NCBI RefSeq assembly: GCF_003334335.1
Contig: NZ_QOWQ01000078.1
Origin: Escherichia coli
GTDB lineage: Bacteria; Pseudomonadota; Gammaproteobacteria; Enterobacterales; Enterobacteriaceae
DNA: 4,565 bases
Direction: 5' to 3' (one strand)
A program made the translations under genes and the position numbers. Below are positions 177 through 4,178 of the stretch, piece by piece. How positions within the stretch are numbered: the first letter of the stretch is position 1; the number at the start of each line of letters is the position of its first letter. The notes beneath the pieces are model-generated. The model saw nothing but the letters and a program-made list of their open reading frames with translations, had not been told where the DNA came from and did not search any database.

Positions 177-177
<1 letters not shown>

Positions 178-854
178 TGACAATGCTACTGCCGCTCTTC
201 ATTCTGGTTGGTTTTATTGCAGGTTATTTTGTTAATGCCATCGCCTATCACCTCTCGCCGTTGGAGGATAAAACGGCGTTAACGTTTCGCCAGGTATTGG
301 TTCATTTCAGGCAAAAAAAATATGCCTGGCATGATACAGTGCCCCTGATACTTTGTGTTGCTGCTGCTATCGCCTGCGCCCTGGCACCTTTCACGCCCAT
401 CGTGACTGGCGCACTCTTTCTCTATTTCTGTTTCGTACTCACGCTCAGTGTTATTGATTTTCGCACTCAGCTCCTGCCCGACAAACTCACCTTACCGCTG
501 CTCTGGCTTGGCTTGGTATTTAATGCGCAGTATGGATTAATTGATTTACATGATGCGGTTTACGGCGCGGTAGCGGGCTATGGGGTGCTGTGGTGTGTTT
601 ACTGGGGCGTCTGGTTAGTTTGTCACAAAGAGGGATTGGGCTACGGTGATTTCAAGCTACTGGCCGCTGCAGGCGCATGGTGTGGCTGGCAAACGTTGCC
701 AATGATACTGCTGATTGCCTCGCTGGGTGGCATTGGTTACGCCATCGTTTCACAACTTCTGCAACGCCGGACTATAACCACTATCGCATTCGGCCCGTGG
801 CTTGCGCTCGGCAGCATGATAAACCTGGGGTATCTGGCCTGGATCTCTTATTAA
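177..854 (+). CDS. gspO: Type II secretion prepilin peptidase / N-methyltransferase (peptidase family A24), GspO
   Basis: 225-aa polytopic membrane protein, the length I recall for E. coli GspO. It carries the prepilin-peptidase aspartate motifs (…VIDFRTQLLPD… and …GLGYGDFKL…). A GGAG Shine-Dalgarno sits at 164-167, 9 nt before the ATG. No N-terminal CxxC zinc motif, as in the short enterobacterial form. Confidence 0.9.
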
Positions 855-855
855 C

Positions 856-875
856 CGGGAGGGTTCTCCCTCCCG
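856..875. terminator. GC-rich hairpin between the convergent gspO and bfr 3' ends (8-bp stem CGGGAGGG / CCCTCCCG, loop TTCT); putative bidirectional terminator or 3' stabilising stem-loop
   Basis: Perfect 8-bp inverted repeat at 856-863 / 868-875, 2 nt after the gspO stop and 8 nt after the bfr stop. No strong U-tract on either strand, so intrinsic termination is uncertain. Confidence 0.45.
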
Positions 876-882
876 ACACGGC

Positions 883-1727: not shown

Positions 1728-1752
1728 AATGGGCTACCAAAAGTAGCCCATT
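1728..1752 (-). terminator. Rho-independent terminator (distal of two) downstream of chiA: 10-bp stem including GGGCUAC/GUAGCCC, followed on the − strand by AUUUUUAUUCAUAUUU
   Basis: Inverted repeat 1728-1737 / 1743-1752 with a 5-nt loop; U-rich tract immediately 3' on the − strand. Confidence 0.6.
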
Positions 1753-1755
1753 GAC

Positions 1756-1786
1756 AAAAAATGCGGCGATACTGGAAGGTATCGCC
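1756..1786 (-). terminator. Rho-independent terminator (proximal) downstream of chiA: 7-bp stem GGCGAUA/UAUCGCC, 8-nt loop, then GCA + UUUUUU on the − strand
   Basis: Inverted repeat 1765-1771 / 1780-1786; A6 run at 1756-1761 on + gives U6 on the − strand, 3 nt after the stem. Lies 8 nt after the chiA stop. Confidence 0.6.
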
Positions 1787-1793
1787 AACACAT

Positions 1794-4178
1794 TTATTGC
1801 TTAGTAAACGGCGCGAAGATTTCGCTAAATGCGTACTTCGGTGCCTGTTCTTTAGTCAGGCCGTGGAATTCCGGAGACAGGTTAGTGCCGCCCGGCAGGT
1901 CGCGCGCGATTGACCAGATACCAACCATACCGAGATTACGCTTCTGCGCATCCTGCATGACCAGACGAGCATCAGAGAGATAGAACACCTCGCCCTGAAC
2001 GTCGTTCACGCCAACCATCGGCGTGGTACCCATCATAGCGTCAATTTCTGCATCGCTCTTATTGGGATGGAGGCCTTTCAATTGTGAATGCAGGTTGGCA
2101 ATCGCAGACGTTGCACACTTACCGTGAATGTTCTGGCCTTCGGTATTTGCAGACTGACAAATCGCGTTACCGTAGTCCATTGTCATCACGTTCACACCCG
2201 CCAGCTCAACACCTTTCGCTTTGGCATCGCTCAGGACATTCATCCCTTCCGGCGTCAGGCCAGTCGGCAGAATTGGCAAGGTGTACCAGATAGCAATATC
2301 TTTGCCTTCTGACTTCCATTTATCCTGCACTTTCTTCACAGCAAGGTTACGACGTTCAATAGATGCCTGATCCGCAACCCAGGTGCCTTCGATATCGAAG
2401 TCCAGGACTTTGAGGTTCAGGTTATCAACGATGTCATAATAATGCTGCATCAGATCGTCTACGTTCTTACAGGAAGCAGCCAGCGGAGCGTTGTTAGCAC
2501 CACCGATAGACAGCATCACATCGCCGCCAGCCTCACGCAGAGCTTTGATTTTGCTGTACTGAGCGTAATTCTGCATACCGTAAGCGGTACCCCATGTCGG
2601 CAGACAGGTGTTCGCATCTTTACTCACCACAAACGCCAGCGTGAAGTGGTTGACGTTATGATTCTTAGCCAGCGCAGCCAGATCCGGGATCGTATTCAGC
2701 GTAAAGTCGACATACGGTGCATAAACGTGTTTCGGCCACGCTTTCTTCGGCGTACCTACGCGCTCTTTGGTTCCGGTCCAGTCAACAAAAACACGCCACG
2801 GGTTGCTGTCAGAAGGAGAAACTTTCTGCACTTTACTCTGAGAAATGTAGTTCACACCGTTAAAGCGAATCAGCGTATCGCTGGCATAAAGCGTTTCTGG
2901 ATTAAACTGCGGCGCATTATTCAGCTCTTCGTTGCTATAGCTCTGAGCCTTACCTAACGGCTTCCACGGGCGGCTATTGCTACCGGTGGCGTTTTGGTTC
3001 GCCACCAGAGCAGGGTTGTCACTTTGCGTCCAGAACAGCGCTTCATAAGCCTGCCCATCAACAACAACGCGATCACCTTTCACGTACACAGTGGATGCGG
3101 ACCATGCTTTCGCCGGTTCGTATTTCTTCCACGGGTTATCGCCGCCCGGGACAAAGCCCCATGCGTCTTGATCGACAGAAGTTTTATAATGTGCATCGTT
3201 ATAATCTACGATGCTGTCCGCGCTGTACGCTTTGCTGGCCTGGAAACCATCCGCAACAATGACGCCGCCGTTATCAATTTCACAGGTAGTCGGGTTACCG
3301 TACTGACTCAATTCCGCAGCGGTAGCTGTACGCTCGAGACGCCATGGGTTATTGGAGTTTTCAGCGCTGGTACCCCGTGGGCAATCTTTAGACCCAACCC
3401 ACCAGGCGTTCTTGTAAACATTACCATTGAAAATAACATGGTAAATTTCGCTACCTTCCTGGCCGCTCCACGCTTGCAATGAGTAATCGTTAACGCTATC
3501 CGCTGGTGTTGATGGCTCGCTGTTATCCGGAGTTGGGGTCACCGGTGTTTCCGGAGTTGGATCAACCGGAGTCACAGCACCGCCATTATTATCCGGCTTA
3601 ACGGAACAGGAGCCAGGGTTACCATACTGGCTGATTTCTGTTGCCGTTGCCGCGCGAACATAACGCCATGGGTTACTGGCATCGTTTTCTTTCGCATCGC
3701 CTGGGCAATTTGCCGCGCCTACCCACCAGGCGTTCTTATAAATGCCGCCGTTATAGATAACGTACCATGTAGAAGAACCTTCCTGACCTTTCCAGGCTAC
3801 TACAGCATAGTTGTCGTTTGACTTATCAGCTGGGGCTGGCTGAACATCAGGAGCCGGTTTAACGTCCGGTGCCGGTTTCACATCCGGTGAAGGCTGTGGT
3901 GCTGAAGTACAGGACTGTGGATTACTGGTTTCTGAGATTTCCGTTGCCGTAGCGGCACGAACATAACGCCATGGGTTGCTGGCATCATTGCTTTTCGCAT
4001 CACCCGGACAGTTAGAAGAGGCTACCCACCAGGCATTTTCATAAATTTTGCCATCGAAAATAACCTGATATTTATTACCACCTTGTTGGTTATTCCATGC
4101 TTCCATTGCCAATGCTGGCAGAGCGGAACACACCAGCCCCATACCAATCATAGATTTAGTAAATATATTTAATTTCAT
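1794..4178 (-). CDS. chiA: Secreted endochitinase / lysozyme ChiA: Sec signal peptide, three N-terminal CBM5/12-like chitin-binding repeats with Pro/Thr-rich linkers, a classical chitin-binding type-3 domain, and a C-terminal GH18 (hevamine-like) catalytic domain
   Basis: 794-aa ORF. N-terminus MKLNIFTKSMIGMGLVCSALPALA↓ME is a typical signal peptide with an AxA site. Three ~65-aa modules share AW…Y.VI.NG.Y.NAWWV…CPG…NPWR…TATAAE(I/L)S…C. AWSASTVYVKGDRVVVDGQAYEALFWTQSDNP is a ChtBD3 motif. LDFDIEG (aa 592-598, DNA 2388-2402 for DFDIE) matches the GH18 catalytic D-x-D-x-E motif. The position between bfd and tufA matches E. coli chiA. Confidence 0.94.
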   Translation of the reverse strand: MKLNIFTKSMIGMGLVCSALPALAMEAWNNQQGGNKYQVIFDGKIYENAWWVASSNCPGDAKSNDASNPWRYVRAATATEISETSNPQSCTSAPQPSPDVKPAPDVKPAPDVQPAPADKSNDNYAVVAWKGQEGSSTWYVIYNGGIYKNAWWVGAANCPGDAKENDASNPWRYVRAATATEISQYGNPGSCSVKPDNNGGAVTPVDPTPETPVTPTPDNSEPSTPADSVNDYSLQAWSGQEGSEIYHVIFNGNVYKNAWWVGSKDCPRGTSAENSNNPWRLERTATAAELSQYGNPTTCEIDNGGVIVADGFQASKAYSADSIVDYNDAHYKTSVDQDAWGFVPGGDNPWKKYEPAKAWSASTVYVKGDRVVVDGQAYEALFWTQSDNPALVANQNATGSNSRPWKPLGKAQSYSNEELNNAPQFNPETLYASDTLIRFNGVNYISQSKVQKVSPSDSNPWRVFVDWTGTKERVGTPKKAWPKHVYAPYVDFTLNTIPDLAALAKNHNVNHFTLAFVVSKDANTCLPTWGTAYGMQNYAQYSKIKALREAGGDVMLSIGGANNAPLAASCKNVDDLMQHYYDIVDNLNLKVLDFDIEGTWVADQASIERRNLAVKKVQDKWKSEGKDIAIWYTLPILPTGLTPEGMNVLSDAKAKGVELAGVNVMTMDYGNAICQSANTEGQNIHGKCATSAIANLHSQLKGLHPNKSDAEIDAMMGTTPMVGVNDVQGEVFYLSDARLVMQDAQKRNLGMVGIWSIARDLPGGTNLSPEFHGLTKEQAPKYAFSEIFAPFTKQ
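3282..3488 (-). repeat. chiA: chiA intragenic repeat 3 (chitin-binding module 3, aa 231-299)
   Basis: Same module architecture (AWSGQEG…NAWWV…CP…NPWR…TATAAELS…C), more divergent than modules 1 and 2. Confidence 0.7.
3606..3809 (-). repeat. chiA: chiA intragenic repeat 2 (chitin-binding module 2, aa 124-191)
   Basis: Shares the identical peptide NCPGDAK.NDASNPWRYVRAATATEIS with module 1; roughly 75-80% DNA identity with module 1 by eye. Confidence 0.75.
3834..3887 (-). repeat. chiA: Imperfect 18-bp tandem repeat ×3 encoding the (PDVKPA)2-PDVQPA linker between ChiA modules 1 and 2
   Basis: + strand units TGCCGGTTTCACATCCGG (3870-3887), AGCCGGTTTAACGTCCGG (3852-3869) and GGCTGGCTGAACATCAGG (3834-3851); codon-by-codon translation gives the PDVKPA repeats. 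Confidence 0.8.
3909..4103 (-). repeat. chiA: chiA intragenic repeat 1 (chitin-binding module 1, aa 26-90)
   Basis: DNA and protein self-similarity to modules 2 and 3; e.g. CGAACATAACGCCATGGGTT is shared between modules 1 and 2. Confidence 0.75.
4107..4178 (-). other. chiA: ChiA Sec signal peptide coding segment (aa 1-24)
   Basis: Basic N-terminus (K2, K8), hydrophobic core IGMGLVCSALPALA, and an ALA cleavage motif. Confidence 0.7.

Follow-up and report, generated by a model that had tools for sequence, protein, structure and literature searches.

Does a chitinase gene that lies next to the last gene of a type II secretion operon mean that the strain carrying it can secrete the chitinase? 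The question is raised by a stretch of 4,565 nucleotides (nt) from Escherichia coli (RefSeq assembly GCF_003334335.1, contig NZ_QOWQ01000078.1), the whole of which was analysed and is called the window here. It holds gspO, encoding a prepilin peptidase of the type II secretion system (T2SS), and chiA, encoding a chitinase, with the iron-storage genes bfr and bfd between them. We put a probability of roughly 0.85 on the following reading: the window covers that end of the E. coli K-12-type ('alpha') Gsp locus which is nearer to tufA, ChiA and the secreton form a pair inherited in one block, and this secreton has been cut by the insertion sequence (IS) IS100 and is most likely inactive. The ChiA-Gsp mechanism is established for the K-12 alleles and is carried over to the window by homology. 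The value of the reading is corrective, as gspO beside chiA suggests competence for secretion and the IS100 sequence 100 nt upstream says otherwise.

The gene set and coordinates given in an earlier note on this DNA agree exactly with the list of open reading frames (ORFs). The gene gspO occupies positions 177-854 on the plus strand (225 amino acids, aa), and bfr (883-1359, 158 aa), bfd (1431-1625, 64 aa) and chiA (1794-4178, 794 aa) lie on the minus strand; nothing else between gspO and chiA is supported by homology, so that the two are indeed separated only by bfr and bfd. Megablast against 5426 complete E. coli genomes matched the region in thousands of chromosomes, where it is annotated as gspM, gspO, bfr, bfd, chiA and tuf, and gspO, bfr, bfd and chiA are also the RefSeq names at near-identical E. 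coli loci. From base 78 to base 4565 the window is 100% identical to one of the matching loci (L005) and at least 99.9% identical to the group to which it belongs (L002-L009), all of which have gspD-M upstream. Bfr was matched by the NCBIfam equivalog TIGR00754 with 279.7 bits (cut-off 126) and Bfd by NF007803 with 143 bits (cut-off 75). In NCBIfam no family was found for ChiA, GspO or the gspM remnant in front of gspO, and the identities of ChiA and GspO rest on Pfam, PDB and RefSeq annotation.

GspO matches PF01478 (Peptidase_A24) over model positions 2-104 of 104 (E 3.6e-30), and both conserved aspartate motifs, IDFRTQLLPD and GLGYGDFK, can be read from the translation. The protein thus has the full-length domain and the two aspartates of an A24 prepilin peptidase, and 'prepilin peptidase GspO' is the RefSeq name at identical loci. 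No match to PF06750 (DiS_P_DiS) was found, nor any CxxC motif in residues 1-80 (window 177-420). This Cys-rich N-terminal region is associated with N-methylation in longer bifunctional peptidases such as PulO and PilD. Since GspO of K-12 is also 225 aa long, the missing region is a property of this family member and no defect of the window's gene. It leaves membership of the A24 family unaffected; judged from its domain content, GspO may be a peptidase-only enzyme that cleaves pseudopilins and does not N-methylate them.

The ATG of gspO overlaps the stop codon of gspM (TAATG, 175-179), and gspM and gspO are adjacent in ten of the loci compared (L002-L009, L017, L018), which makes gspO the last gene of the gsp operon, translationally coupled to gspM. 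In the locus of K-12 isolate MC1000 (L017) the operon runs gspC-D-E-F-G-H-I-J-K-L-M-O, within a complete layout of rpsJ-gspBA-gspC..M-gspO-bfr-bfd-chiA-tufA, and gsp synteny was likewise seen in L002-L009. The description of gspO as the terminal gene of a T2SS operon is therefore borne out by synteny, although the operon itself is not visible within the window.

ChiA begins with a Sec-type signal peptide, MKLNIFTKSMIGMGLVCSALPALA (codons 1-24, 4107-4178, minus strand), followed by MEAW. Inspection of the translation showed a basic n-region, a hydrophobic core and an A-L-A cleavage motif but no lipobox, and the protein thus carries the cleavable signal peptide expected of a T2SS substrate. Three diverged N-terminal repeats follow (direct-repeat family D1; 3936-4101, 3633-3798 and 3309-3474, minus strand), each of ~55 residues, 62-73% identical to one another and separated by Pro/Thr-rich linkers. 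Every repeat has two cysteines and a CBM5/12-like NAWWV...NPW core, and residues 25-95 are similar to the N-terminal part of Yersinia Chi2 (6ogd, E 1.6e-13). Further on are two CBM5/12 modules (aa 312-340 and 358-391; 3006-3245, minus strand), found with PF02839 at E 1.3e-7 and 0.092 and also matching PDB entries 2d49 and 6z40. The GH18 catalytic domain spans aa 481-792 (1803-2738, minus strand). It is matched by PF00704 over aa 506-702 (E 8.6e-10) and over its whole length by PDB 9buf (E 1.8e-46) and by 2dsk, 3a4w and 3a4x (~1e-37, ranging to 8e-37). The catalytic DxDxE motif, LDFDIEG within VLDFDIEGTW, is invariant in the 897-aa allele usual in E. coli and in the ortholog of Enterobacteriaceae bacterium UBA5654. 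Profile, structure matches and motif together identify a GH18 chitinase. Its paired cysteines and multi-domain build would fit folding in the periplasm before export. The earlier note had held that the linkage to gsp explains the Sec signal peptide. This goes too far: the signal peptide is compatible with two-step T2SS export, and to our knowledge one is found on every periplasmic or secreted protein.

Upstream of chiA lies an AT-rich region with promoter-like sites (4179-4417, minus strand; composition profile and promoter scan), in which G+C content falls to 26-35%, against about 50% for the genes. Such a composition is typical of regions silenced by H-NS. Within it, about 150-190 nt upstream of the chiA start, there is a 20-nt AT-rich inverted repeat (4326-4371; ATTCATATTTAAAATGTTAA / TTGATATTTTAAATATGAAT) with 90% complementarity and a gap of 6 nt. 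As it is not conserved upstream of the UBA5654 ortholog, we rejected it as a conserved operator.

That chiA is linked to gsp and that ChiA is the substrate of this normally silent secreton was known for E. coli K-12, and the earlier note was right on both counts. According to the papers that cite the original work (Francetic et al., 2000, EMBO J 19:6697, via PMC5797941, PMC2649431, PMC3032704 and PMC11390585), the K-12 gspC-O operon is cryptic and repressed by H-NS and exports the endochitinase ChiA, and ChiA itself is silenced by H-NS. One of them (PMC11390585) also credits that work with the finding that K-12 ChiA is secreted only with the whole gsp locus present.

The genomes give the same picture. 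Among the complete E. coli genomes, the catalytic part of chiA was found in 3160/5426 and gspO in 3159/5426; the two lie on one contiguous stretch in 3150 and are both absent from about 2266. The gene chiA thus has the phyletic and positional association with a secreton that a T2SS substrate should have, with physical linkage as a confounder. A cross-species scan with ChiA, covering one genome per species, returned two loci and one independent lineage. The latter is UBA5654, whose gene order is fusA-tufA-chiA-bfd-bfr-gspO-gspM-L-K-J-I-H-G-F-E. Protein identity to the window is 74% for ChiA, 55% for GspO, 53% for GspL and 43% for GspM, and synteny is kept at 43-83% identity overall and 43-63% for the Gsp proteins. 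This gene order supports a co-inherited cassette, as far as sequence comparison can tell. The second locus (L015) is from a metagenome-assembled genome (MAG) assigned to 'Citrobacter sp.' (HRGM_Genome_0066). With 96-100% protein identity to the E. coli locus it was rejected as independent evidence; an E. coli contig has probably been binned into this MAG by mistake. Co-occurrence, deep synteny and the composition upstream of chiA all agree with a substrate-secreton pair.

The left end of the window departs from this arrangement. Bases 1-77 (minus strand) are identical in 77/77 nt to positions 3001-3077 of a locus (L001) in which they lie directly upstream of the annotated istA of IS100, an IS21-family element; they match L010 and L011, beside istA, equally well, and the same end occurs in the IS100 copies of strains 536 and OkiPb01684. 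They represent the istA-proximal end of IS100, and istA itself would start ~10 nt to the left of base 1. The terminus, ...CCGTTCGTGACA, stops exactly at base 77, as a true IS end should. BLAST extensions to bases 88-96 might have meant that the IS end ran further, but the alignment shows them to be short chance extensions into unrelated flanks. Loci encoding the identical 794-aa ChiA match the window from base 78 to the end with 99.9-100% identity (BLAST) and have no match to bases 1-77. Mapped onto K-12 gspM, the junction 77/78 falls at nt 363 of 462, so that 100 nt of gspM (78-177, plus strand) precede gspO. This remnant is 100% identical to L005 and encodes the last 33 residues only, followed by the stop codon TAA (175-177), without an in-frame start codon. 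Of an intact gspC-M upstream of gspO, the window thus holds the last 100 nt of gspM only.

The exact junction occurs in 0/5426 complete E. coli genomes and gave 0 matches in JGI metagenome contigs. The same IS100 end does lie in gspL or gspM in 11/5426 complete genomes, in the same orientation and at three other positions (+37, about +296 and about +518 nt relative to the junction in the window). These positions suggest recurrent IS100 insertions or nested IS-adjacent deletions in the gsp operon, and the junction in the window goes back either to a separate insertion or to a deletion next to the IS. In the T2SSs that have been studied, GspM is an indispensable part of the inner-membrane platform. 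Because GspM is truncated and gspO is separated from the gspC promoter, a working secreton is unlikely, and going by the DNA this genome's copy probably does not function. The coupling of ChiA to Gsp implied in the earlier note accordingly stands as general biology but is probably inoperative here, where IS100 interrupts the operon 100 nt upstream of gspO. The IS100 junction in gspM goes beyond the literature consulted here.

We propose the following course of events. ChiA, a modular GH18 endochitinase, would be exported by Sec and would then fold and form its disulfides in the periplasm. It would cross the outer membrane through the secreton of the adjacent gspC-O operon, for which the prepilin peptidase GspO would mature the pseudopilins GspG-K. 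Both chiA and gsp would be silenced by H-NS under laboratory conditions, which fits the 26-35% G+C upstream of chiA. With IS100 at nt 363 of gspM, at least the last 33 residues of GspM would be missing, and gspO would be cut off from the operon promoter. With the secreton inactive, ChiA would either not be expressed or remain trapped in the periplasm, barring another way out of the cell.

Two other explanations have to be weighed. One is that the adjacency is a by-product of a shared recombination block and that ChiA is no specific Gsp substrate in natural strains; it would then be periplasmic or would leave through the beta T2SS (yghJ-pppA-gspC-M) or by a holin/endopeptidase route as in Serratia. 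Its strength is that co-occurrence cannot separate linkage from function for genes only 1 kb from each other in the same block. In addition, ChiA bears the RefSeq name 'bifunctional chitinase/lysozyme', Serratia chitinases are described as using a holin/endopeptidase route other than a T2SS (in PMC4259817), and Kulkarni et al. detected no T2SS-dependent secreted proteins in uropathogenic E. coli (PMC2649431). However, no holin/endopeptidase gene adjoins chiA in the ORF list of the window, the arrangement is kept in UBA5654 despite divergence of the Gsp proteins to 43-63% identity, and the requirement of K-12 ChiA for the full gsp locus, as cited above, speaks for a substrate. We consider the by-product explanation highly improbable. 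The other explanation takes the junction at 77/78 as an assembly artefact, the gsp operon being intact and the locus an ordinary one of K-12 type. Both ends of the window are repeated DNA, IS100 at 1-77 and the tufA/tufB duplication at 4489-4565. As the IS part is exactly 77 nt long, a common assembler k-mer length, and the right end lies inside a duplicated tuf gene, the window looks like a whole short-read contig (k = 77) bounded by repeats, with repeat-induced breaks at both ends; together with the lack of the junction in every other genome and metagenome searched, this would suit an artefact. On the other hand, a de Bruijn contig normally ends in a repeat that does lie beside the unique sequence in the reads themselves, and the IS part breaks off precisely at the genuine terminus ...GTGACA. 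Such an event is also plausible given the 11 complete genomes in which IS100 sits in gspL or gspM, at three other sites. An artefact is therefore unlikely in our judgement.

We thus prefer the reading of an authentic ChiA-secreton pair interrupted by IS100, and several points weigh against it. The junction is unique to this one sequence among the genomes and metagenomes searched, and an IS of exactly 77 nt at a contig end is compatible with a real junction and is also a place where assembly is prone to error. To the left of base 1, the rest of the gsp operon may survive, may have been lost or may have been rearranged. Only 1 kb separates chiA from gsp within the block, so that linkage alone, and not selection, could explain why they occur together, and for this strain secretion of ChiA is argued from homology.

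The chiA allele of the window is itself uncommon. ChiA of E. coli usually has 897 aa and four repeats (WP_000773156.1), whereas the protein of the window has 794 aa and three. Relative to the 897-aa allele, exactly 309 nt are missing, that is 103 codons comprising one repeat and a Ser-rich linker, and the first repeat in the window reads as a fusion whose front part comes from K-12 repeat 1 and whose back part comes from K-12 repeat 2. The difference concerns chiA codons ~20-96 (window 3890-4120). A query spanning this junction found the three-repeat form contiguous in 42/3159 chiA-bearing complete E. coli genomes; the others have a fourth unit of 103 aa (897 aa in all). The exact 794-aa protein is WP_000773136.1 in strain EC0430, and in the genomes with the short form its RefSeq name is 'carbohydrate-binding protein' and not chiA. 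It is widespread in draft assemblies and metagenomes (91 index blocks), and elsewhere it is encoded beside complete gsp clusters. The UBA5654 ortholog has three repeats too; the three-repeat form is either ancestral or arose later, when recombination between repeats 1 and 2 removed a unit. The N-terminal chitin-binding domains of ChiA have been credited with adhesion to host cells via CHI3L1 (Low et al., 2013, as cited in PMC11390585). For adhesion phenotypes the length of the ChiA allele may matter, the 794-aa form being one chitin-binding-type module short. A separate observation concerns K-12 isolate MC1000, a laboratory derivative, whose annotation lists chiA (18935-21628 of L017) as a pseudogene containing an internal stop codon.

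The genomes that lack chiA and gspO reveal the nature of the block to which these genes belong. A bfr-bfd query matched 5395/5426 genomes and divided them into two sharp classes, 3161 with at least 95% identity and 2233 with 78-79% identity. The long haplotype, with chiA, bfd-bfr and gspA-O, accounts for about 58% of complete E. coli genomes (~3150/5426) and is the one to which the bfr and bfd alleles of the window belong. The short haplotype accounts for about 41%. In this 1.5-kb allele (examined in L012, L013 and L014), rpsJ is followed by an orphan 155-aa 'prepilin peptidase', bfr, bfd and tufA, and there is neither chiA nor gspA-M. The orphan peptidase has 41% aa identity to GspO and its gene overlaps bfr by 4 nt, compared with the gap of 28 nt between gspO and bfr in the window. 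When the short locus was aligned with the long locus of K-12, identity was 99.8% up to 184 nt beyond rpsJ and 99.4% from ~52 nt past the tufA stop codon (window ~4418), with nothing alignable in the interior save bfr-bfd at 77% nt identity. Both edges of the long block are sharp; the right one lies at ~4418, and short-haplotype genomes match the window only from there on. Between long and short alleles nt identity is 79.5% for bfr and 76.4% for bfd, in contrast to 99.8% for fusA. For comparison, bfr and bfd are 76-80% identical between the haplotypes and 75-82% identical between either of them and UBA5654, with the long E. coli bfr-bfd allele slightly nearer to UBA5654, itself a carrier of chiA and gsp.

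Hence chiA, bfd-bfr and gsp behave as one heritable block between the ultra-conserved tufA and rpsJ. The bfr-bfd pair, which the earlier note names as all that separates gspO from chiA, is no unrelated spacer: its alleles travel together with chiA and gsp in a single diverged haplotype block. A simple deletion of the long form was rejected as the origin of the short one, given bfr-bfd only 77% identical and a peptidase only 41% identical. We think it rather likely that the tufA-rpsJ interval is an old two-allele cassette polymorphism with a long form of ~16.6 kb and a short form of ~1.5 kb, whose alleles are as diverged as if they came from different genera. In the short form, bfd-bfr is about 22% diverged in DNA and the 155-aa orphan peptidase looks unrelated. 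The cassette alleles were presumably swapped by homologous recombination in the conserved flanks formed by translation genes. If so, secreton and substrate would be inherited as a single unit.

Such a cassette would also bear on two published statements. In a pan-genome genome-wide association study of mastitis fitness, bfr and bfd figured among the 'accessory' genes, and their strain frequencies equalled those of gsp and chiA (PMC11390585). A two-allele block explains this behaviour, and the mastitis associations of bfr and bfd would then be hitch-hiking of linked alleles. Likewise, the label 'gspO-rpsJ deletion' for the short form (PMC3032704) would be inaccurate. The rarity of the three-repeat ChiA and the haplotype dimorphism likewise go beyond the literature consulted; together with the IS100 junction, they leave the classification of the locus unchanged.

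The remaining features of the window concern transcription and the right flank. In the 28-nt gap between the convergent gspO and bfr sits a GC-rich 8-bp hairpin (856-875; -17.7 kcal/mol, z = -3.5, 0/200 shuffles equally stable). The terminator scan does not list it, as it has no T-run; it is probably the shared transcript end of gspO and bfr. Two terminator-like hairpins with T-runs lie just 3' of the chiA stop codon (1728-1752 and 1764-1787, minus strand). Because the total number of terminator-like sites in the window is not above chance, their role as chiA terminators is argued from placement. Upstream of bfd, a promoter-like site, TTGAAA-17-TATTTT (1650-1680, minus strand), overlaps GAAAATAGTTCTTATTTC, which by eye resembles a Fur box; this unscored candidate fits iron regulation of bfd-bfr. 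The tufA intrinsic terminator (4419-4446, minus strand), found by the terminator scan as a 12-bp stem followed by a T-run, is conserved in UBA5654. The 3' end of tufA (4470-4565, minus strand; translation and annotation of matching loci) comprises the last 31 codons and the stop codon (...VAKVLG) and is conserved flank outside the variable block. Rfam gave no match at the gathering threshold anywhere in the window.

Of the known systems, the gspC-O/chiA (yheB) locus of K-12 (T2SS-alpha, the K-12-type T2SS) is closest. It shares gene order, orientation and intergenic regions with the window, its bfr-bfd is 100% identical and its GspO is equally 225 aa long, and over 78-4043 the window is 99.98% identical to the K-12-type locus of strain E89. 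The window differs from K-12 in its ChiA of 794 aa and three repeats instead of 897 aa and four and in a gspM cut by IS100. In the latter respect it resembles the 11 genomes with IS100-disrupted gspM or gspL (E89, BY63, ETEC1730 and others), which have the same IS100 end in the same orientation. In E89 a simple insertion of IS100, complete with istA and istB, has duplicated 5 bp (CTCCC) at gspM nt ~321-325; the junction of the window (nt 363) lies 37 nt downstream of it, and the strains of this group encode the 897-aa ChiA, unlike the window. The short haplotype, as in O55:H7 and M10, is like the long one in chromosomal position, in a peptidase gene converging on bfr and in bfd adjoining tufA. 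According to the literature it also occurs in strain W and phylogroup B1. Salmonella presumably has the short arrangement as well, with a gene called hopD.

A more distant parallel is the Pul system of Klebsiella, in which the Sec-dependent, periplasmically folded PulA is encoded beside its T2SS operon, with pulO as the last gene. As in the window locus, a glycoside hydrolase gene lies next to an exporting T2SS that ends in a prepilin peptidase gene. Pul differs in that its pullulanase is a lipoprotein, encoded divergently from pulC-O and regulated by MalT, with no bfr-bfd in between.

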